DNA of 64,000 nt, taken from the sequence record JX560968; one strand, 5' to 3'. Both the position numbers and the translations under genes were made by a program. How positions within the stretch are numbered: the first letter of the stretch is position 1; each line of letters opens with the position of its first letter. Origin of the DNA: Escherichia phage EC6. Shown here piece by piece: positions 2,224 through 47,755 of the stretch. A model generated the notes under the pieces. That model did no database searches. It was given only the letters and a program-made list of their open reading frames with translations, and was not told where the DNA came from.

Positions 2224-2673
2224 ATGTGTTATACAGGCGACCCAGCCAATAACCCTCTTGATAGAGTAAGAATCCTCTGCACAGACACCAATAATGATGA
2301 AATTCTTATTGAACAGTCTGTGCTAGAGTGGTTCTATCTAGAATCTGGAAAGGATGAAAAGAAAGCAGCCATCAAAGCTCTTAAATATTTACTCTTTCAA
2401 GTAGCCAAGATGGGAGATGAGAAAGTTGGTGGTGTTTATTTACGTAACTCTTCCAGATTCAAATCTCTGAAAGCTGTTTATGACGACCTTGTTAAAAGCT
2501 CTGTTTCAGGACTACCCTATGCAGGTGGTATTAATCAGTGTGATATTGACATGCGTCGTCATAATCCTTGCTCTGTCAAGAAATACACAGAATATGGTGA
2601 TGCTGCCAGATACGAAGGCAGAGATTACTGCAACCGTGTTAATGGCGTATTTATTATCGAGCGAGATGAATAA
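2224..2673 (+). CDS. hypothetical head-tail joining/neck protein
   Basis: ORF with AAGGAGGG RBS 8 nt upstream; between capsid and sheath genes. Confidence 0.3.
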   Translation: MCYTGDPANNPLDRVRILCTDTNNDEILIEQSVLEWFYLESGKDEKKAAIKALKYLLFQVAKMGDEKVGGVYLRNSSRFKSLKAVYDDLVKSSVSGLPYAGGINQCDIDMRRHNPCSVKKYTEYGDAARYEGRDYCNRVNGVFIIERDE

Positions 2674-3155
2674 TGGTTAAAAGGGTTATTCACCCCGCTA
2701 GAGCAAAATTAGTCGGGGCTATGAAGAACTTGCAAACGGCTAATGCTCAAGTTGGGTATTTTCAAGAACAAGGTCAACATAGCTCTGGTTTTTCTTATCC
2801 TGCTTTAATGTATTTACAAGAAGTTATTGGGGTTCCTTCAGCTTCTGGTAAAGTATATCGTAGGTTGTTTGAAATCACTATGATGCTAAACAAACAGACC
2901 TTGTTAGAGCAGACTAAGAAGAATCTATATAAGCAACTTAGCAGTCTCAACACAGACCCTTCAAATACCTTAGAAGCATTTGCAAAGAATACTCAAAAGG
3001 CAATTAAAAGGGGTTTTGGTAATTCTGCTATCCTCCCTCCTAACGCACCTTCCACAGTCAAGAAAAAAGGCTTTAACGCACCTCTTGTTGAGACAGGTGA
3101 CTTAAGAGATAACCTTGCTTATAAAATTTCTACTAAGAAGGGTATTAAGAAATGA
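2673..3155 (+). CDS. hypothetical head-tail joining/neck protein
   Basis: Start overlaps stop of upstream ORF (translational coupling); morphogenesis module. Confidence 0.3.
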   Translation: MVKRVIHPARAKLVGAMKNLQTANAQVGYFQEQGQHSSGFSYPALMYLQEVIGVPSASGKVYRRLFEITMMLNKQTLLEQTKKNLYKQLSSLNTDPSNTLEAFAKNTQKAIKRGFGNSAILPPNAPSTVKKKGFNAPLVETGDLRDNLAYKISTKKGIKK

Positions 3156-25443: not shown

Positions 25444-26000
25444 TTAGTGTACTTCAAGCCAGCTTTTACCAACCTTACCAGTACCTGTAACAAGCGTTTC
25501 TTTCTTAAGACCTAAGTTTTTAGAAGCTTGCCCATAATACCAGTCAGTAACTGCTTTCACTTCTGCCGTCATACTTTCTGGACATTCCCAACTCGTCTCG
25601 TCGTGATAGGAGCACAATAAACGAGCACCTATAGCTGGTTTGCGACCGTTCAACTTCATCAAACCTTCGTCAATCATACGACGGCAAGCAAGGTTAATTG
25701 CTTCATTCTGAACCTGCGCCTCACTACCCATTAGGGTATAGTTTAATAGTTTATGCGGTGATTTACACCATAACCACGCCCCAGCGACCTGAATGTACCC
25801 ACCCTTAGCGATTGCAGCACTCTTGCCGAAAACCTCTTCTAATGCCTTCTTAGTGGCCTTAAAATCGGCTTCTAAGTTATCAAGTAGTTTCTTAATCTTT
25901 GGTAGACGCATATAGTAGGTCTGCTTAGTTAATGCACCTTCCTCTGTAGAAGCTGCCTTAATGGTCTTGGCAAACTTCTCATCACCTGCACCGAACAATA
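25444..26000 (-). CDS. family A DNA polymerase, exon 2 (C-terminal part incl. motif C)
   Basis: Begins ..LFGAGDEKFAKTIKA (second half of Pol A motif B, cf. T7 ...YGAGDEK) and contains LLCSYHDETSWECP (motif C HDE); track ORF starts at TTG. Confidence 0.7.
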
Positions 26001-26805
26001 CATCTGGTCAATACACTCGCAAGGTGTACCAGTTCTCTTATGAACTTCTCCGCATTTCTACGGAGTGTCGGACTATATCACGCAGTAGTAATACTACCGT
26101 TGCACTTGGGAATGGTCATTAGCTTACCACCCTACTCTACTCAGTTCATACATTAAGTATGCTTTTCGATAGTCTCTGAACGTTTCTCTGTTAGGAACTC
26201 TAAAATACTATTATTTACTAAGGTATGCAATTGCTCTCTTCATGTTCTCTATACTATCTGAGAACAGCCCAAGACCTCTGTTACAGTTGTGACACAGCAT
26301 ACCTCTTACCTGTCCTGTTTTGTGGTCATGGTCAACAACCAGCTTGGCTTTATGTCTTGAACCATCCATGATAAAACCTTCACCACCGCAGATTTGACAC
26401 TTGTGACCACACTTACTTAGTAACTCTTCGACCTCTTCTCTTTCTAAGCCGTAAGTCCTTAAGTAATAGTTCTTTACCCTTCCCTTTTCTCCACAAGCAG
26501 AACTGCAATACGTCTGTCTTGCTGTTCTAGGTGTAAACTGGTTATTGCAGCTTGGACATATTTTCTCTATGACACGACTTGCTGCTCTTCTGTCTACTTC
26601 AAGAACGCAGTTTCTACAACGTTTTTGATTGTACTGATATGGCTTAAACTCTTCGCCACATCTGGAACAAACTCTTTCTTTATAACCTGCCATTGTCTCT
26701 CTCCCATTTCTACTATAGGAGTCCTAACAGAGACTTCGCTGCTGATTACCATATCTTTACAGACTTAGGCTTCCAGCAATTCACAACGTTTTACATGCGC
26801 CACTG
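26001..26805 (-). mobile_element. group I intron (about 805 nt) in DNA polymerase gene, carrying an HNH homing endonuclease ORF
   Basis: Exon 1 ends ...AUCUAUGCGU; intron starts CAGUG-GCGCAU (P1: exon AUGCGU pairs with GCGCAU, U-G at splice site); intron ends ...GACCAGAUG; 3' part has GACUAUCG, GUAGGGU, GAUAUAGUCC elements like T4 td-type introns; joined exons restore ...KAKNGIYA-LLFGAGDEK. Confidence 0.6.
26211..26693 (-). CDS. HNH homing endonuclease (endonuclease VII-like) inside the intron
   Basis: Cys-rich zinc-binding N-terminus and HNH core LVVDHDHKTGQVRGMLCHNCNRGLG. Confidence 0.7.
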   Translation of the reverse strand: MAGYKERVCSRCGEEFKPYQYNQKRCRNCVLEVDRRAASRVIEKICPSCNNQFTPRTARQTYCSSACGEKGRVKNYYLRTYGLEREEVEELLSKCGHKCQICGGEGFIMDGSRHKAKLVVDHDHKTGQVRGMLCHNCNRGLGLFSDSIENMKRAIAYLSK

Positions 26806-28948
26806 ACGCATAGATACCATTCTTAGCCTTCTTACGGCCTTTAGTTATCTCGTGAAGAAGTTCTTCATCCTGAGTTTCTCTACAACGAATAATGTCATCC
26901 TCTTTGTTCAATGCAAAGTAGATGCTGTTAAGCGTATGTGCATCAGTACCTGTATACACCTCATATAAGTCATTATCCATATCGTAACGACAATACTTGT
27001 CAGTCTCTGGATTGAGGTACTTGTCAAGATGTTTGCAGTAGTACCGTCCATCATCCTGTTTAGTGAACTCGACAAACTCTTTACCTTCAGTTACTGCTTT
27101 AGTGAACTCTTTATCACCCATAAAGTTACACAGTAAAACAAGCTGTGCAGAGTTCTGGTCAACTGAAACGATGTTAGTCCCTTCCTCACAAATCCACACC
27201 TCCCTCATAGGTGCTCCATAGACAGCAGCACCAGATGGTACGTTTACAATACCATACTGCGTCATACGTCCAGTTGAAGTACCAAACACCATTGCACCAG
27301 CACTAAGGCGACCATCTGGACGAATCTGGTTCAACCAACCTTTTTCATCATCCTTTGAGTTCTCAATAGTTCTGCGTCGGTGCATCAAAGTATAGTACTT
27401 AGCAATCTTCTGTCCAAGTTCACCTTCAATCGTATCATAAGATGATTCAGTAAGTTTTGGTGAAGTACGGATTAAGCAAGGCTCAAGCAAATCTGTGTAC
27501 TTCTTCACAGACCAGTTATGCTCAATGTACTGTACACCTTCATGTTCAACATAACTCAAACCACACCGCTCAACCATTTCCTGCCACTTAGGATGCTTTG
27601 TAATCATCTTTTTATTGTCTTTGAAACGACAAACTTTGACAGGGTGACCATCTGAGTCTTTCTTGTAGTTCCAGTCATCTGGAATCCAACCAACTGATTT
27701 CAAGTAGTCTTTAACAACTGCTACCTGAGTCATACGAGAAACTTCAAACTCAATTGGTGTATATGGTGCATCAATCAAACCTGTGTAGCGACTTGACTCA
27801 AGTTCAAAGTGGTTAACAACGTGGCTGTTATAGTACTTCACAGTTTTGACTGTTTTTACTGGCTTCCAGTCTTTGCATTTCTTACCAATCTTTGCATTCA
27901 ACTCATTGCAAATTGCACGAGCATCCTTCATTGCTACAAAGCCTTCCTTGTACTCTTCACCAGTTACAGAGTTGGTTGGTGTATAGCAATTTCTCTTTTC
28001 AATGTTAAAAATCTTTGTAGTTGGCTTACCAAATGGCTTGATTTCGTATGTCTGCATCTCACCGTTACGTACCTGCTGACGATACTTTGTCTTAGGATAC
28101 TTGGTAATCCTCTTCAGTCCATCTGCATGACCAAATGTTTCAACATACTCATTCCAAGCTTTTGCAAACTCTTCTCCAGTGACTTTACCTTTGGTCTTAA
28201 TAGTTGGAGGAAGATGTGGTTCAACCTCTGAAGCAAGCTCATTAGTCAACTTGTCAAGTTCCTTTACATGGAACTCCATAAGCTCTTTATCAGCTTTCCA
28301 ACCATTGATAGCTTGTTGACTCATCCAGAAAGATGTTTCTTTAGCTCGCATGTAAGTTTCATAAGTGTCTATACCACACTTCTTAAGCTTGAGATACTCG
28401 TTATCAAGTGCCCGTTTAGTTTTGGCGTTAATACGGATATCTTCTACAACACGAGTGAAGATTTCTGCATTCCACACACCCCAATGTTCAATCTCTGGTT
28501 TACGAACACCAACACGAGCACCCCATGCAGCCAAACCATGAGCACCTTTATAACCCTTTGGAGTTGGTCTATCCATCCACTGAACACGAGACTGGATAAG
28601 AGAATCCTGAAAGAAATTACTCCACGGTTTACACTTTGGATTATCAAAGTTCCATAAATCAGGTGCAATGTGATTGAAAACCCACCAGTCATAACCGAGA
28701 CCGTTGTGGATGCAAAGACGTTTTGCCTTTAACGCAAACTCAATACCTTCACGTAAGCCACCCTTGATGTACTTGGTATACTTGTGACCGAGGATAGGCT
28801 CATCTGTAAAGACCCATACAGGTGGCTCTTCATCATCAGATTTATAGTCTGCGAAAGCCATTACGTGCACTTTAGTGAACTCAAGGAGTAAACCATCAGT
28901 TTCTGTATCACCAACTAAATGTAAGTTTTTAAAATCTACGTTTTCCAT
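26806..28948 (-). CDS. family A DNA polymerase, exon 1 (3'-5' exonuclease and N-terminal polymerase domains)
   Basis: Exo motif LVGDTETDGL (cf. Pol I DTETDSL); ends ...GRKKAKNGIYA (first half of motif B); likely start is ATG at 28948 (GAGGGAG RBS) rather than track start 28978. Confidence 0.75.
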
Positions 28949-29629: not shown

Positions 29630-29893
29630 ATGAATATCGATGTAGAAAAGATGCTTGAAGAGAAAGGTGTTGATGAAGCATTCTTAATCAATGCCGTAGA
29701 AAGCATGGCTATGATTCTTCGTGGTAATAACTACACAGAACAGTTTATGCCTGCAAGCTATAACTTGCCTGAAGACAAGTCTGATAACGGTGCTTTTGCA
29801 GAACAGGTTAATATGATGTTGACAGACACTACACTTGCTCTGGCATCTATTGCGGTTGGTGTTGATGCACTTGCTGAGTTCAGTTTTTTATGA
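29630..29893 (+). CDS. hypothetical protein
   Basis: 87-aa ORF. Confidence 0.3.
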   Translation: MNIDVEKMLEEKGVDEAFLINAVESMAMILRGNNYTEQFMPASYNLPEDKSDNGAFAEQVNMMLTDTTLALASIAVGVDALAEFSFL

Positions 29894-33422: not shown

Positions 33423-33491
33423 TAGTTATAAAAGAGAGGGGTTCATACCCTTCTTTGAAGAAAAAGTTTAAATGAATTTCAGGAAGAGTGT

Positions 33492-34815: not shown

Positions 34816-35863
34816 ATGGAGAAGTACACATTAAAAAAACCTTCCCGATTCAGTTACACATGTTTTTATCGACTCTGACAGTATTGCCTATAAAGGGGCT
34901 TGTGTAGTTGAGAAAGCAAAATATAAATACGTCAATAAACTCACAGCAGAAGAGTCTGAACCATTTGATAATGCAAAAGATGCTGCAAGATGGTTAGCAG
35001 ACCAGAGAATCCTTGTGGAAGAGCTTGGCCTAGCATTTGATGAAGATGAATGGGAAAGACAGACTTGGAAAGAAGCTAAGAGTGAAAAAGAAGCTATCAT
35101 GGCTACTCAACAGGTGCTTCAGGAATGGCTTAAGGTTGTTGGTAAAGAAAGAACTTGGGTAGGTTATTTAACAGAGAAAGGTGTGCATAAACATAAAGAC
35201 ATTAAAGGTCTTGAGCACCAATATCAAGGTAACCGCAAAGATGCTGTCACACCAACACACTTAGTTGCTTGTCGTGAATATCTTCTGTCAAGACCAGAGT
35301 TCAAACTAATTCTTGATGGATTTGAAGCTGACTCTATCGTGATTGCTAAAGCTGAAAAGATGGGTAAAAAGGCTGCCTTAATGAGTATTGATAAAGACCT
35401 TCGACAAGCTGAAGGTACTTACTGTATTGATATGACTTATGAAAAGTCGCCTTTGATTTTCATTGCTGATAACAACGTTGGTGAAATTTGGGATTGTCCA
35501 ATAAAATCGACACCAAAAGCTAAGAAGACAGTTGGGGTAGGTTTTAAATTTCTTTGCTATCAAGCCGTGGCTGGTGATAATGCGGATAATTATTTCGGTT
35601 TAAAGGGTGTTGGTAAGGTTACTATAATGAAAGCCCTTGAAGGTAAAACCACTTACAAAGAGTGTCTTGATGCAATTTATGAGCTTTATGCTAAGAAAGA
35701 GTCATACACTTATGTCTCGTGGGATGGTCAAACAATTACCAGAACACCTTTAGAGTTAATGCAGCAACACTTTTTCTTAGCTTATCAGGAAAGAAACAAG
35801 AAAGATGATTTCACTTTTGATAAGTATGGGTGGACACCAAATGTTAACTCAACAAACTCTTAA
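34816..35863 (+). CDS. 5'-3' exonuclease / flap endonuclease (RNase H-like), reading frame interrupted at A7 run 34833-34839
   Basis: ATG 34816 gives MEKYTLKK then stop; +1 frame continues ...VFIDSDSIAYKGAC (FEN N-terminal motif) into track ORF 35015..35863 with H3TH motif AGDNADNYFGLKGVGKVT. Confidence 0.6.
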
Positions 35864-36332
35864 AGAATACCTACACTATGACCCCGAAACAGGGGTCTTT
35901 ACTTGGATTAAGAAGTCTGCTAAGCACACAAAAATTGGTTCTGTTGCAGGTACAAACTTAAAAGGTTACATCCGAATTTACTTGTTTGGTAAAGGGTACT
36001 ATGCGCATTCATTAGCTGTCCTATATATGGATGGTTATCTTCCTGAGTGTGTTGACCACAAGAACCATGTAACTCTAGACAATCGTTGGTTAAATCTGAG
36101 GGCATGTACACTATCAGAGAACCAATGCAATAGGTTGCTTAACAAAAACAATAAATCCGGTGTCAAAGGTGTGTACTACAACAAGAGGTATGGTAAGTGG
36201 TCTACACAGATAACTTTTCAGAAGAGAGTTTACTTCTTCGGCAACTATGACACGATTGAGGAAGCAGCAGAAGTTGTGAATAGAGAACGTCAACGTTTAC
36301 ACAAAGAGTTTGCTAATAAAGGTGATGAATGA
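35841..36332 (+). CDS. free-standing HNH homing endonuclease with AP2 DNA-binding domain
   Basis: HNH core VDHKNHVTLDNRWLNLRACTLSENQCN; AP2-like SGVKGVYYNKRYGKWSTQITFQKRVYFFGNYDTIEEAA. Confidence 0.6.
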   Translation: MLTQQTLKEYLHYDPETGVFTWIKKSAKHTKIGSVAGTNLKGYIRIYLFGKGYYAHSLAVLYMDGYLPECVDHKNHVTLDNRWLNLRACTLSENQCNRLLNKNNKSGVKGVYYNKRYGKWSTQITFQKRVYFFGNYDTIEEAAEVVNRERQRLHKEFANKGDE

Positions 36333-36830
36333 GAAAAATTAAAGGTTTTGGTAATTGCCCTGAGTATGGACATTGGATTTCACTTTGTGGGGAAATTGAC
36401 CCAGCAAAGCATTTTGGTTTTGTCTACCTAGTGTACTGCAAAAAGACTGGGCAGTACTATTTGGGTAAGAAACAGTTTAACAGTGTGACCAAAAGAAAAG
36501 TTGCTGGGAAGACTCGGAAGAAGGTAGTCACTAAGGAGAGTGATTGGATGACTTATGAGACTTCTTCTGAGTATATTAAAAAACGATATTGAGAGCTTTG
36601 GAAAAGAATTTTTTGACTTTTACATTATTCAAACCTACTACACAAAAGGTGGCCTAGTCTATGGTGAAGCAAACCTTCAACATAAATTCGATGTAATGAC
36701 AAAAAGGATTGACTCTAAGCTCAGACTCTTCTACAATGCCAACATTGCAGCAATTAAGTTTATCACTAAAGAAACTTATGAAGATGCTGAAAAAAGAATC
36801 CATAAGGTAATGAAAGCAAATTGTGCTTGA
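36329..36830 (+). CDS. GIY-YIG-like endonuclease, two overlapping ORFs (36329..36592 and 36555..36830) separated by a frame change at A6 run 36578-36583
   Basis: N-terminal GFVYLVYCKKTGQYYLGKK resembles GIY-(10)-YIG motif; second ORF continues in +1 frame. Confidence 0.35.
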
Positions 36831-36851
36831 TAACTATTGAGAGAGAATAAA

Positions 36852-37100
36852 ATGTTTAACAAAAGTAAAGCTGTGAGTCATGTAGCAAAGGTTGACAGCA
36901 AGATTGAAGAACTTGAGCGCATCCTTGCAAATGCCAGAGAGTCAATAATTAAAGAAGTTGAAGCTGTTGAATCTCAAATGCAGCACCTAATGCTTAAACG
37001 CCAAGAGCTACGTGAGCATCTAGAATATATTGAAACACGAGAGCTAAAAGTTAACAGATATTTTAAGGAGTCCGAATGTTTAACTCAAGAGAATCAGTAA
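36852..37100 (+). CDS. hypothetical coiled-coil protein
   Basis: 82 aa from ATG 36852. Confidence 0.3.
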   Translation: MFNKSKAVSHVAKVDSKIEELERILANARESIIKEVEAVESQMQHLMLKRQELREHLEYIETRELKVNRYFKESECLTQENQ

Positions 37101-37831
37101 AAAACTGGAACCTTCGTTGTGGAAACACTCAAAAGCAACCTTACAGTAATGAGTATTGGGAATCTTTAAAATCTCAATCTCTGTGTATGCTTGAAGAAGC
37201 AAAAGAGCTTGTAAAAGCAATTGAAGAGAAAGACCCCATTGAGACACTGGATGCTCAGGCAGATTTGCAATATGTTCTTGACGGTCTGATTTATCTGTCA
37301 CAGCATGACCATAATGGTGCTATGAAAGCTGTTTGCCATAATAATGACCTGAAGTACACAGATGACTATGAAGAAGCTTTAAAACGTCTTGCAGATATTG
37401 AGAAGCGTACTGGTCAAGAGTGTATTATCAGAATGTCAGTGGTTGATGGTAAAGAGTGGTATGCGATTGTCCGTGCAGCCGATGGGAAGATTATGAAGCA
37501 ATCAAATCTCCCTAAAGTACAGCTTGGTGAATACATTGTAGAGCTTGAAAGCCAAGAACTTTTTGTGGTAGTATCTGATACATGCGTTATCTGCAAAGGT
37601 ATTGTAGGTAGCTTAAAGGATTTGGGTGTAGATGGTTTTGTAGAAGTTAATCCAATTACCTCTAAAGCAGATAAAGATTTCTGTAAAGAGAATGGACTAT
37701 GGATTGCAGATATTGTCTACTACGATGGTGAGCAGTTCCATGTAACCTCATACCCGAAACTGAATTATGATGCTAATAACCTGAAGTGCTGGTTAAAAGG
37801 GGTTGGTTATAATGGATTCACAGAACATTAA
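37076..37831 (+). CDS. MazG-like nucleotide pyrophosphohydrolase (putative)
   Basis: EEAKELVKAIEE...LDAQADLQYVLDGL matches the all-alpha NTP-PPase EExxE...D pattern. Confidence 0.35.
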   Translation: MFNSRESVKNWNLRCGNTQKQPYSNEYWESLKSQSLCMLEEAKELVKAIEEKDPIETLDAQADLQYVLDGLIYLSQHDHNGAMKAVCHNNDLKYTDDYEEALKRLADIEKRTGQECIIRMSVVDGKEWYAIVRAADGKIMKQSNLPKVQLGEYIVELESQELFVVVSDTCVICKGIVGSLKDLGVDGFVEVNPITSKADKDFCKENGLWIADIVYYDGEQFHVTSYPKLNYDANNLKCWLKGVGYNGFTEH

Positions 37832-38135
37832 TAAAGAAGGTGTGGCTCAGAAGAGCCACTTCTCAAACTATAATATTTCTATGACGGTGTTTATGTATGA
37901 CCCGTTACTTGAGAAGTATGGTGAGACTCCAGATACACTTCTGGATAATGAACAAGTTTTAAAAGCAGTCCTGTACAAATATGGGATTGATATTGAGAAA
38001 GAGTATTCCTTTGAAATCTGCCAACACAGAAATACTTTTGGTAAGGTTGTGATGGCTCCACTCTTTATGGGTGTAGAAAGGACTGACTACGGTTGGTTAT
38101 ATCTAAAAAGAAACTTGGAGAAATACCGTGTCTAA
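37803..38135 (+). CDS. hypothetical protein
   Basis: 110-aa ORF. Confidence 0.3.
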   Translation: MVIMDSQNINKEGVAQKSHFSNYNISMTVFMYDPLLEKYGETPDTLLDNEQVLKAVLYKYGIDIEKEYSFEICQHRNTFGKVVMAPLFMGVERTDYGWLYLKRNLEKYRV

Positions 38136-42616: not shown

Positions 42617-43813
42617 ATGAACAAAGTACAAATTATTAAAAAGAATGGCTCACTTGAAGAACCGGATATCAAAAAAGTTTTAGCAGCAGTCACAAAGTCG
42701 GCTAATAGGGTTGGTTATAAAGAGCTTCCACCAGATGTTACTCAAGCTCTTGAGTCAGCATTTATGAGGATTCTGGTAAAATCTACTAAACAGAATAATT
42801 TGCTAATCTCGGTAAATGATATCCACAGTATTGTTGAGGGTGCTTTGGCAGAAGTCAATCATGAGATTTATGAGTCTTACTCAACATATAGAAATTACCG
42901 TAAAGAGGTTGCTCAAAATTGGGATGAGCTTTACCAAAAGACTAAAGACACACTCTTCTTAGGTGACCGTGAAAACGCTAACTTTGACAGTAGTTTAATT
43001 TCTACAAAAGGTTCAATTATTCGTGGTTACCTGACTAAAGAAATCTTTAAACAGTACCATTTAACACCAGAGGAACTTGAAGCCATTGAAAAAGGGTTTA
43101 TCTATATTCATGATTTAAGAGACCTGATTTTTGGTGGTATCAACTGTTGCCTGTTTGACATTGGTAAAGTGCTGAAAGGTGGCTTTGAAATGTCTGGCAT
43201 TGAATACTGTGAACCAAAGTCTGTACTGTCAGCTTTACAGGTTATTGGTGATGTAGTTCTTTCAGCAACTGCACAGCAATTTGGTGGCTTTACTTTAGCA
43301 GAGATTGATAAGGTACTTGTACCGTATGCTAAGAAGTCTCTACGTTACCATGCTGAAAAAGCAACAGCTTATGGTATTCCTAAAGAACATTACCACAACT
43401 ATGTCATGGAGCAGCTACAGATTGAATTAACTCAAGGTTTTCAGTCTCTTGAAATGAAGCTCAATACCGTACCTTGTAGCCGTGGTGATTTTGCATTCAC
43501 AACTTTAACATTTGGTTTACTTGACCCAGACATGTCTAATGAAGACAACCGATTACAATACATGATTGCAAGTACCCTCCTAGATGTTCGTATGAATGGA
43601 CAAGGTAAGAGCAAGAAGCCTGTTGTATTTCCTAAACTGGTTTATATTTATGACCAGAAGAGACACGATGAGAATATCTGTCAAGGACACCTGTACAGTA
43701 AAGCCATTGAGTGTTGCTCTAAAGCAATGTATCCAGATTTCTTAAGTGTATCTGGTCATGGTGCTGTAGCAGAGGCTTTTGAGCGTTCTGGTAAGGTTAT
43801 TTCACCGATGGGT
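42617..43813 (+). CDS. nrdD: anaerobic ribonucleoside-triphosphate reductase, exon 1
   Basis: N-terminal ATP-cone (IIKKNGSLEEPDIKKV); ORF ends ...ISPMG where intron begins with UAA. Confidence 0.75.
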
Positions 43814-44129
43814 TAACAAGCTCTATAGCTCATCTAAAACGTGCCTAAACAGGGAAACTCTACAGATGTAGACAATCCTGTGCTAAATGATGTATGATGT
43901 AAGAAACTATACAACATAGGAGTCTTACATGCCAAATAACTTCGAATATGAGTTTGAATACATCTAAATGCCGAACGACTAACCGTGATGAATGTAGCGG
44001 TGTAGGGTCAAGCGACTCGAAATGGTACGCTACTTAGAAATAAGTAGAAGATATAGTCTGGACTTACTGGCGACAGTAAGCAGCTTGAATAAAGCGGGGT
44101 AAGCTTAGCGAACTTACCTGAACAACAAG
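43814..44129 (+). mobile_element. ORF-less group I intron (about 316 nt) in nrdD
   Basis: Starts UAACAAGCUC right after exon AUGGGU (P1 with intron GCUCAU at 43828-43833); core resembles T4 td-type introns (CUAAACAGGGAAACUCUACAGAUGUAGACAAUCCUGUGCUAAAU; GUAGGGUCAAGCGACUCGAAA; GAUAUAGUCUGG); ends ...CUGAACAACAAG; exon 2 resumes in frame. Confidence 0.7.
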
Positions 44130-45077
44130 TGTAGAGCATTTTTATCACCATACCATAACGAATATGGCGAAGAGTTTTATGTAGGTCGTGCTAACATCGG
44201 TGCTGTTTCTTTGAACTTACCAATGATTTACCAGTATTCTAAAGAGAATGGTTTAGATTTCTGGAAGGAGCTTGATAAGTACCTAGAGATGATTCGCAGC
44301 TTCCACAAGAAACGCTACGAAATGATTGCTAACATGCCAGCAAGTTCTAACCCTCTGGCATTCACACAAGGTGGTCTGTACAAAGGGACTAAGAAACCTA
44401 CTGACAAGGTTGGTTGGGATATCGTGAAGTCCTTCACAGCTTCTTTTGGGGTTACTGCGCTTGATGAACTATCTGTTCTTGCTGAAGGTAAACGACTTCA
44501 TGAAGTTGGAAGTTCTAGTTTTGCATACGATGTTCTGGCATACATTAACATGAAAACTGAAGAGTTTAAGAATGAAGATGGCTTCCTGTATGCAGTATAT
44601 GGCACTCCAGCAGAGTCATTGTGTGGAACTCAGCTAAAACAGTTCAGAGATATGTTTGGCGTTATCAAAGGCGTTTCTGATAAGGAATATTTTACAAACA
44701 GTTTCCATATGAATGTTGCAGCAGATATCTCACCATTTGAGAAGCAGGACTTAGAAGAGCCATTCTTCCATATCTGTAGAGGCGGCAGAATCCAGTATGT
44801 GAGGGTAGCTAACCCAGAAAACTTACCAGCACTTAAAAGTTGTATTACAAGAGGGATGTTGAAAGGCTTTTATCAGGGACTTAACTTTGACTTAGCAATC
44901 TGCGAACATTGTGGCAACAGGCCAAAGGCTGATGTTGAAGAATGTGAGGTTTGCCATTCACATGACATCTCTGTGATTAACAGAGTGTGTGGATATCTTG
45001 GGTGGACTAAGATTAAAGGTGAATCCCGAATGAATGATGCAAAAATTGCTGAGATTCGTGATAGGGTTTCTATGTAA
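44130..45077 (+). CDS. nrdD: anaerobic ribonucleoside-triphosphate reductase, exon 2
   Basis: Begins CRAFLSPYHNEYGEEFYVGRANIGAVSLNLP; C-terminal zinc ribbon CEHCG...CEVCH and glycyl-radical motif RVCGYLG; spliced product about 714 aa. Confidence 0.75.
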   Translation, partial: CRAFLSPYHNEYGEEFYVGRANIGAVSLNLPMIYQYSKENGLDFWKELDKYLEMIRSFHKKRYEMIANMPASSNPLAFTQGGLYKGTKKPTDKVGWDIVKSFTASFGVTALDELSVLAEGKRLHEVGSSSFAYDVLAYINMKTEEFKNEDGFLYAVYGTPAESLCGTQLKQFRDMFGVIKGVSDKEYFTNSFHMNVAADISPFEKQDLEEPFFHICRGGRIQYVRVANPENLPALKSCITRGMLKGFYQGLNFDLAICEHCGNRPKADVEECEVCHSHDISVINRVCGYLGWTKIKGESRMNDAKIAEIRDRVSM

Positions 45078-45431: not shown

Positions 45432-45537
45432 TTAAGTTGAACAAAAACAGTTAGAGTGGATTAAAGATTACGCCTCAGAGTGTGGCTCTTGCGAAAAGAA
45501 TCACGTAAGATACTCAACATTTCATACGGTCTTCACA

Positions 45538-47239: not shown

Positions 47240-47755
47240 ATGTACCTGTCAAACCTGAAACGTTCGGCTGCAATGTCAGTTCTAAGACTCAGCTTTGAGG
47301 AACGTCAAGAGTTCATTGACTCCCACCAATATGACCCTTCCAACTCCAATCACATGATTCTCTGGAATCGTGAGAGTACTCGTGAAAGAGCATTATTCCG
47401 ATATTACCCATACTACACCATAGACAACCTGTATGAATGTTTTGTTGTGAAGAACACCATTACAGTACTCAATAAACTTTGCAGATACACAGGTAGTCAA
47501 TCCTTCACATTAGGCCACCACAAACCTGTTACAAAGGGTGGTGAGCATCACTGTGCAAACTGGTTTATCCAGACTAAACTTGATAATCAGAAGCAAGGAG
47601 ATAGTCTTTTAAGCACCTCTAAGATGACCTATGAAGAGCAAGAGAAATATATCAAAAATAATATGCCAGATGTGCTTGACAACAACTATACAGATTTGGC
47701 AATATCTCTCCTGTTGAAGTTCGAGACAGTTTATAGGGCAACTTATAATGGCTAA
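47240..47755 (+). CDS. HNH-motif nuclease-like protein (putative)
   Basis: LGHHKPVTKGGEHHCANWFIQTKLDNQKQGD resembles an HNH core. Confidence 0.35.
   Translation: MYLSNLKRSAAMSVLRLSFEERQEFIDSHQYDPSNSNHMILWNRESTRERALFRYYPYYTIDNLYECFVVKNTITVLNKLCRYTGSQSFTLGHHKPVTKGGEHHCANWFIQTKLDNQKQGDSLLSTSKMTYEEQEKYIKNNMPDVLDNNYTDLAISLLLKFETVYRATYNG

Follow-up and report, generated by a model that had tools for sequence, protein, structure and literature searches.

A variable HNH-AP2 endonuclease gene and a conserved SegE-type GIY-YIG gene downstream of the FEN gene in Escherichia phage EC6

Background

Two reading frames of endonuclease type follow the FEN gene in Escherichia phage EC6 (sequence record JX560968), and the question which this locus raises is whether both are selfish elements, and whether the second of them is already in decay. 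The first-pass annotation of this DNA had described the pair as a homing endonuclease islet, consisting of a free-standing HNH-AP2 gene overlapping FEN at its 3′ end, and a GIY-YIG-like remnant broken by a frame change. Here we follow up both genes in a stretch of 64,000 nucleotides of the EC6 sequence, referred to below as the window.

Both genes are already known, as they are annotated in dozens of FelixO1-like genomes and constitute an ordinary Felixounavirus feature. In FelixO1 they are ORF106 (NP_944978, HNH endonuclease) and ORF107 (NP_944980, 'NAD synthetase'), which are found at the same locus and in the same order (FEN-HNH-GIY-hypothetical-MazG) as in the window, and annotated orthologues of the pair are present in VpaE1, pinkbiff, Mushroom, Moogle and Sf14, under the names 'HNH homing endonuclease' and 'GIY-YIG homing endonuclease'. 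The FelixO1 genome is reported to contain six copies of HNH endonucleases (PMC3185647), and insertions and deletions of endonucleases have been described as the main difference among FelixO1-like phages (PMC3728262). Genes combining HNH and AP2 domains are known from phages, cyanobacteria and protists, and have been described as homing endonuclease genes (Magnani et al. 2004, cited in PMC10448857). What the present analysis adds is that the supposed remnant is probably the product of a sequencing error, and that the GIY-YIG gene has the character of a conserved, core-like gene.

Results

Genome and gene order

The window shares 94-96% nucleotide identity with VpaE1, FSL SP-012 and LF110P4, and represents a Felixounavirus (FelixO1-like) genome. 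The region 35000-37900 matched 256 phage records, the best at 95-96% nucleotide identity and nearly all from Felixounavirus (FelixO1, VpaE1, FSL SP-010/012, LF110P4), and a 24-kb query taken from the window gave the same picture. No near-identical public contig was found for the window, the best matches in IMG/VR and INPHARED being ~96% identical. The genes at the locus are, in order, a hypothetical gene, FEN, the HNH endonuclease, the gene annotated as either 'NAD synthetase' or 'GIY-YIG homing endonuclease', a second hypothetical gene, the MazG-like pyrophosphatase and nrdA (Table 1).

Table 1. Features at the FEN-HNH-GIY-YIG locus, and frame splits in other genes of the window
Feature	Position	Strand	Evidence
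FEN / 5′-3′ exonuclease gene (FelixO1 gene 6 homologue, 'exodeoxyribonuclease')	34816..35863	+	phrog_107 exonuclease, 3.4e-57
HNH_3 + AP2 endonuclease gene, free-standing, 163 aa, allele A	35841..36332	+	Pfam and phrog_99
HNH_3 nuclease domain (aa 53-95)	35997..36125	+	Pfam profile, allele alignment
AP2-type DNA-binding domain (aa 106-144)	36156..36272	+	Pfam profile, below gathering score
Hairpin GACCCCGAAACAGGGGTC within 5′ end of HNH ORF	35880..35897	+	Allele comparison
Putative mosaic or recombination tract around HNH insertion	35300..36500		Identity drop versus Pr103Blw
SegE-type GIY-YIG nuclease gene, catalytic domain only	36329..36830	+	PF19835, synteny, conservation
Extra C following A6 run, private to the window sequence	36584..36584	+	Alignment to relatives
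Frame split, 'minor tail'/hypothetical gene	29883 and 30407		
Frame split, small ORF	33466		
Frame split, ORF at 45442			
Frame split, nrdG	46183		
Frame split, rIIA	52222		

Further endonuclease and intron signals were seen elsewhere in the window. The ORF between the two DNA polymerase pieces (26214-26696, minus strand), which had been listed as an intron-borne HNH gene, is present but is of Endonuclease_7 type (5.9e-20), and the accompanying group I intron signal is sub-threshold (22.9 bits). The ORF at 47240, listed as HNH-like, belongs to phrog_3500 (unknown function) and has an HH…N…N-like motif with a weak match to an HNH family (phrog_2214, E=3e-4). An ORF-less group I intron is located in nrdD (43756-44080, 53.6 bits, Rfam). 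The earlier tally of at least four endonuclease-type selfish genes is roughly right as a count, but not all of these genes are demonstrably selfish.

Sequence and domains of the HNH-AP2 gene

The HNH reading frame opens with an ATG at 35841 and overlaps the 3′ end of FEN by 23 nt (FEN stop codon at 35861-35863), and its own TGA stop codon at the other end overlaps the start codon of the GIY-YIG gene (ATGA). The predicted protein matched Pfam HNH_3 (PF13392) with 41.6 bits (curated cut-off 24.8) and phrog_99 'HNH endonuclease' at 6.5e-69, and matched AP2 (PF00847) at E=3.7e-5 with 24.4 bits, which is below the cut-off of 33.3. Of the two domains assigned earlier to this ORF, HNH was recovered above the cut-off and AP2 below it, and both profiles were also matched by all six sampled alleles of the gene (best AP2 E=2.7e-7), while the Sf14 orthologue is annotated with InterPro AP2/ERF. 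Residues D72-H73, N85, N94 and N97 are invariant across the three alleles described below, the catalytic His and Asn of the ββα-Me fold being kept. A PDB sequence search with the HNH protein returned nothing meaningful. The dN/dS ratio within allele A is 0.04-0.05, which suggests that a functional protein is encoded.

A hairpin, GACCCCGAAACAGGGGTC, lies near the 5′ end of the ORF, within a 66-nt stretch that is ~95% identical between alleles A and B, compared with ~60% for the remainder of the gene. Promoter and terminator scans around both genes gave counts, including that of terminator-like structures, which did not exceed those in shuffled sequences, and any function of the hairpin would be hypothetical.

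Distribution and alleles of the HNH gene

An HNH gene occupies the FEN/GIY junction in ~87 of ~290 Ounavirinae records (counted as matches of the FelixO1 protein at E<=1e-40, of which all those listed adjoin the exonuclease gene), and elsewhere FEN abuts the GIY-YIG gene directly. Examples of such empty sites are Pr103Blw, mistaenkt and Erwinia phage M7, where FEN overlaps the GIY-YIG gene by ~8-11 nt. Nucleotide alignment of occupied and empty sites shows an insertion of ~500 bp which also replaces the sequence on either side: the FEN C-terminus is exchanged over its last ~8 codons (…WEPCMNED-stop becoming …WTPNVNSTNS-stop), and the GIY-YIG gene has its first 2-3 codons replaced (MKIK becoming MRKIK).

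The HNH genes fall into three deep alleles, which share 52-58% amino acid identity with one another. The window, VpaE1 and Sf14 carry allele A (19 records at >=80% amino acid identity), the window protein being 94% identical to that of VpaE1 and 92% to that of Sf14; allele B is carried by FelixO1 (40 records), whose protein is 57% identical to that of the window; and allele C is found in wV8 and Moogle. The first 22 amino acids are the same in all three. At the nucleotide level, alleles A and B are ~95% identical over the first 66 nt and then drop to ~60%, while their flanks are 96-99% identical. Within allele A and within the genus, the body of the HNH gene has a dS of 0.55 against VpaE1, compared with 0.17-0.19 for the flanks, and is therefore about threefold more diverged. 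Similarly, comparison of the window with the HNH-less Pr103Blw gave 95-99% identity elsewhere but 71-81% over approximately 35300-36500.

The alleles are not confined to one genus, as Felixounavirus and Mooglevirus both contain A as well as C, with a between-genus nucleotide identity of 84% for allele A and 78% for allele C, versus 81-82% for the flanking genes. With regard to the neighbouring FEN gene, the FEN 3′ allele of the window type is also present in phages without an HNH gene, and allele C accompanies the other FEN allele. We therefore rejected strict co-conversion, in which the divergent FEN 3′ allele would be linked to the presence of HNH, as this linkage is incomplete. Finally, the HNH genes at the same locus in FG1m, D1-2 and GE_vB_B1 are split, each giving a match in two pieces.

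Identity and conservation of the GIY-YIG gene

Downstream of the HNH gene, the ORFs 36329-36592 and 36555-36830 (both + strand) lie in different frames and match consecutive positions of the PF19835 SegE_GIY-YIG profile (11-69 and 67-123; E=9.6e-14 and 2.3e-8; 52.1 and 34.7 bits), as well as consecutive parts of phrog_447. The GIY-YIG-like frame with a frame change noted in the first-pass annotation is thus present, and profile searches gave matches for HNH and GIY-YIG above the cut-off and for AP2 below it. Deletion of the base at 36584 restores a protein of 166 aa, which has the same length as and is nearly identical to the intact proteins of SP-012, VpaE1 and FelixO1 (94% amino acid identity with FelixO1; 94-99% with FelixO1 and the annotated orthologues). 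The repaired protein matched PF19835 at 4e-27 with 95.3 bits (cut-off 25), over positions 11-123 of 123.

Its profile match and catalytic residues place this protein in the SegE-type GIY-YIG family. When it is aligned with T4 SegE and with the Erwinia, cyanophage and Vibrio homologues, residues Y33, Y44, G46, E113 and N136 are invariant, and correspond to the GIY, YIG, Glu and Asn positions, with Lys or Arg as the residue following YIG-G. T4 SegE, a free-standing GIY-YIG homing endonuclease and the type member of PF19835, shares the GIY, YIG, Glu and Asn, but in pairwise comparison it aligns with the window protein over the GIY-YIG motif only (BLASTP E=0.74), and hence the assignment to the SegE family is based on the Pfam profile together with the multiple alignment. 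The two proteins also differ in architecture: the window protein ends ~30 aa past the catalytic Asn, without the C-terminal DNA-binding extension of ~80 aa seen in SegE, and has instead an N-terminal extension and an internal insert rich in Lys and Arg. The Ounavirinae and cyanophage proteins consist of the catalytic domain only, whereas T4 SegE and a 326-aa protein of Vibrio phage K571 have a C-terminal extension. A PDB sequence search with the GIY-YIG protein returned nothing meaningful.

In contrast to the HNH gene, the GIY-YIG gene was found at the same position in every sampled genus of the Ounavirinae. The order FEN-GIY-hypothetical-MazG is kept in Felixounavirus (VpaE1, FelixO1, pinkbiff, Pr103Blw, wV8), Suspvirus (mistaenkt), Mooglevirus (Moogle, Sf14) and Kolesnikvirus (Erwinia phage M7). 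A tblastn search with the repaired protein found it in ~296 records at >=60% amino acid identity, versus 288 records with the FEN 3′ end. Compared with Erwinia phage M7, the GIY-YIG protein is 61% identical and the most conserved of six neighbours (FEN 55%, MazG 39%, others 19-47%), and its dN/dS of 0.03-0.06 is similar to that of FEN and lower than that of MazG. More distant homologues (28-38% amino acid identity in the sampled matches), which bear the erroneous label 'NAD synthetase', are found in ~400 records of cyanomyoviruses.

The frame break in the GIY-YIG gene

Alignment with VpaE1, FelixO1 and pinkbiff showed that the GIY-YIG gene of the window differs by exactly one extra base, a C following an A6 run. 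The 41-mer centred on this C was absent from all 50,697 phage records searched, and a 27-base pattern spanning it was found in no IMG/VR contig, while the intact 40-mer was present in 150 phage records and the intact pattern in 14 IMG/VR contigs.

This is not the only such break in the window. A comparison of the whole window with three relatives identified 14 isolated single-base indels private to the window, of which 10 or 11 lie in or beside A/T runs of at least 5, although such runs make up 2.7% of window positions; as a control, the relatives differ mutually by 3-4 such indels, mostly intergenic. Four of the private insertions (29883, 34841, 36584 and 52222) have in common a strand-symmetric change from A6 to A6C. 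In the FEN gene, the single extra C, which follows an A7 run at 34840/34841 and is lacking in all relatives examined, breaks the frame after codon 8, upstream of the conserved Asp-rich N-terminus, while the SP-012 FEN protein is covered by tblastn over residues 9-348 at 98.8% identity. A tblastn search of all SP-012 proteins against the window revealed the other frame splits listed in Table 1, and at least seven conserved genes other than GIY-YIG are broken likewise at A/T homopolymers, including FEN, nrdG and rIIA. For FEN, rIIA and the gene split at 29883 and 30407, both sides of the breaks are 98-99% identical to SP-012. Identity around the other breaks is lower, and falls to 75-82% in places within nrdG and the small ORF at 33466.

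As single-base breaks associated with homopolymers are also found in FEN, nrdG, rIIA and other conserved genes, an error in sequencing or assembly is the most likely cause of the frame break at 36584. The alternative put forward in the first-pass annotation, a homing endonuclease which has been inactivated by a frameshift and is decaying in EC6, has in its favour that the sequence, taken at face value, has a broken frame, and that the split HNH genes of FG1m, D1-2 and GE_vB_B1 indicate that endonucleases do become inactivated in this group. We nevertheless consider it quite improbable, since the gene differs by one private base and shows no further decay, with both halves matching the profile and the repaired protein nearly identical to its intact relatives; the frameshift allele was absent from the phage and IMG/VR sequences searched; the gene is syntenic and under strong purifying selection across the subfamily; and it is unlikely that a phage with equivalent breaks in FEN, nrdG and rIIA at once would be viable. 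Some detail does speak against a simple artefact, in that two of the three + strand events with a C added after A6 (36584 and 52222) are not simple changes in homopolymer length. The form common to the four private insertions could be read as real extra bases that programmed +1 recoding would skip at A6-7C sites (FEN, GIY-YIG, rIIA and, as the complementary pattern, the ORF at 29883). The A6C sites are, however, found in no relative, the remaining private indels are ordinary deletions in A/T runs, no known recoding signal was identified, and a systematic base-calling or polishing artefact is a simpler source of the common pattern, and we rejected programmed frameshifting as unparsimonious and extremely unlikely.

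Discussion

The sequence comparisons suggest different histories for the two neighbours. Our explanation, in which we have considerable confidence as a whole, is that the HNH gene encodes a functional-looking, free-standing HNH (ββα-Me) nuclease fused to a probable AP2 DNA-binding domain, and that the GIY-YIG gene is a functional-looking, fixed and vertically inherited gene of the Ounavirinae, maintained by purifying selection rather than a decaying relic. The idea of an islet of selfish genes accordingly applies to one half of the locus: presence and absence in relatives is sporadic for the HNH gene, but the GIY-YIG gene is found at the locus in all relatives sampled, despite its matches to an endonuclease profile.

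Its patchy and multi-allelic distribution supports the view that the HNH gene is a variable element, as is expected of a homing endonuclease, and agrees with its earlier designation as a free-standing homing-type endonuclease. It resembles the known HNH and AP2 family in having an N-terminal HNH and a probable C-terminal AP2 domain, and in being free-standing, with conserved genes of DNA metabolism on either side and an apparent sequence-exchange boundary at its site. HNH genes of the T5 group ('nicking homing endonuclease', F-Tfl family, names which are annotation-level only) encode proteins with 33-45% amino acid identity to the window protein. Recombinational exchange around phage endonuclease genes has been described in general (PMC10448857), and the elevated dS of the HNH body, the divergent alleles within near-identical flanks and the drop in identity versus Pr103Blw all point to such exchange at the FEN/GIY site. 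In our explanation, the HNH gene was inserted exactly between FEN and the downstream gene and is translationally coupled on both sides. In the mechanism that we propose, its product may, in a mixed infection, nick or cut the FEN/GIY junction in a related phage which lacks HNH, and recombinational repair from the HNH-containing genome would then copy the HNH gene together with flanking markers. The cleavage activity and target site assumed here are both inferred, as would be any recent and active homing.

The gene could also be an old, vertically inherited accessory gene which is no longer mobile, and is kept as a balanced presence/absence polymorphism by a function beneficial to the phage. The occurrence of alleles A and C in two genera each is compatible with this, as within-allele divergence is similar to that of the flanking genes, so that long vertical inheritance fits these data as well as mobility does. 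The FEN 3′ allele is likewise not strictly tied to the presence of HNH, and Barth et al. (2023, PMC10448857) point out that homing is not inferable from sequence alone and that domestication occurs. The low dN/dS of the HNH gene fits as well, but purifying selection is expected of an active homing endonuclease too. The threefold higher synonymous divergence of the HNH body compared with its flanks, the occurrence of divergent alleles inside near-identical flanks, and the sharp drop in identity around the insertion in comparison with an HNH-less relative speak against this alternative, as all of them indicate recombinational exchange at the site, and we regard it as unlikely.

The GIY-YIG gene fails two hallmarks of homing endonucleases, namely a sporadic distribution and a separate DNA-binding domain of the kind that gives T4 SegE and I-TevI their long recognition sites; where T4 SegE is sporadic, the gene of the window is fixed at one locus across the subfamily. 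It may tentatively be viewed as a domesticated nuclease rather than a homing endonuclease, a suggestion to which we give somewhat less than even weight. With regard to its cellular role, our best guess is a nuclease kept for the benefit of the phage, which could for example cut the DNA of competitors or the host.

Conclusions

The frame breaks in the window sequence, those of FEN, nrdG and rIIA among them, should not be given a biological meaning, and 'NAD synthetase' is an erroneous label which has spread through annotations of this GIY-YIG family. The FEN/GIY junction, with an empty site and three divergent HNH alleles, offers a clean natural system for experiments on HNH-AP2 homing. If the adjacent GIY-YIG gene is indeed domesticated, it would have a housekeeping or competitive role in these phages, such as the degradation of DNA from the host or rival phages, or the processing of DNA together with the adjacent FEN.

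Frame breaks and the 5' end of the HNH gene

Compared with its relatives, the window carries private single-base indels in A/T homopolymers at 29883, 30407, 33466, 34841, 45125, 45442, 46183, 52222 and 56205, among others, which break FEN, nrdG, rIIA and several small ORFs, and four of the window-private indels take the same strand-symmetric form, A6 to A6C. The source sequence appears error-prone, and any frame break in the window should therefore be treated with suspicion. Among the relatives, the FelixO1-type HNH gene (allele B) at the FEN/GIY-YIG junction matches as two pieces in Salmonella phages FG1m, D1-2 and GE_vB_B1, with two HNH CDSs annotated there in FG1m; this may reflect either real inactivation of the HNH gene or sequencing errors in these records.

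Over its first 66 nt (35841-35906), the HNH gene is ~95% identical between the window version (allele A) and allele B, vs ~60% for the remainder, and the first 22 amino acids are identical in alleles A, B and C (the last from wV8 and Moogle). This conserved stretch with its hairpin could mark a boundary of recombination or act as a regulatory element or a terminator; terminator-like elements were no more numerous than expected by chance.

Features at the HNH gene and at other loci (window coordinates unless stated)
Feature	Position	Strand	Remarks
DNA polymerase, two pieces	25447-28948	minus	769-nt spacer between pieces
DNA polymerase spacer	25999-26767	minus	769 nt
Endonuclease_7-type (His-Me finger) ORF in spacer	26214-26696	minus	Pfam 5.9e-20
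GC-rich hairpin GACCCCGAAACAGGGGTC, then TTT	35880-35897	+	within conserved first 66 nt of HNH gene
nrdD exons	about 42617-43813 and 44223-45074	+	
Group I intron without ORF	43756-44080	+	Rfam RF00028, 53.6 bits; interrupts nrdD
phrog_3500 ORF (unknown function)	47240-47755	+	phrog match 1.5e-90
P-SSM2 short-form GIY-YIG homologue	2444-2881		coordinates in P-SSM2 sequence

Endonuclease-type genes at other loci

Near the spacer of the split DNA polymerase, the only group I intron signal was sub-threshold (26665-26778, 22.9 bits, E=0.004); for FelixO1, a single polymerase gene has been reported. The HNH-like character which the first-pass annotation gave to the phrog_3500 ORF is plausible, but its support is weak: the ORF shows the motif GHHKP..GGEHHCANW..LDNQ and no more than a weak HNH match (phrog_2214, E=3e-4). 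The FSL SP-012 counterpart is 96% identical.

A homologue search with the window GIY-YIG protein showed that short-form homologues (PF19835 / phrog_447) occur widely among T4-like cyanophages (~400 cyanomyovirus records). The 'NAD synthetase' annotation that they carry there seems to be a propagated misannotation of what is a GIY-YIG nuclease domain.

At nrdD, the gap corresponding to the window's intron holds a homing-endonuclease ORF in FSL SP-012; VpaE1 has an uninterrupted nrdD, with a MobE-like endonuclease next to it downstream. Because the three phages differ in this content, the presence of intron and of endonuclease at the nrdD locus is polymorphic among them.
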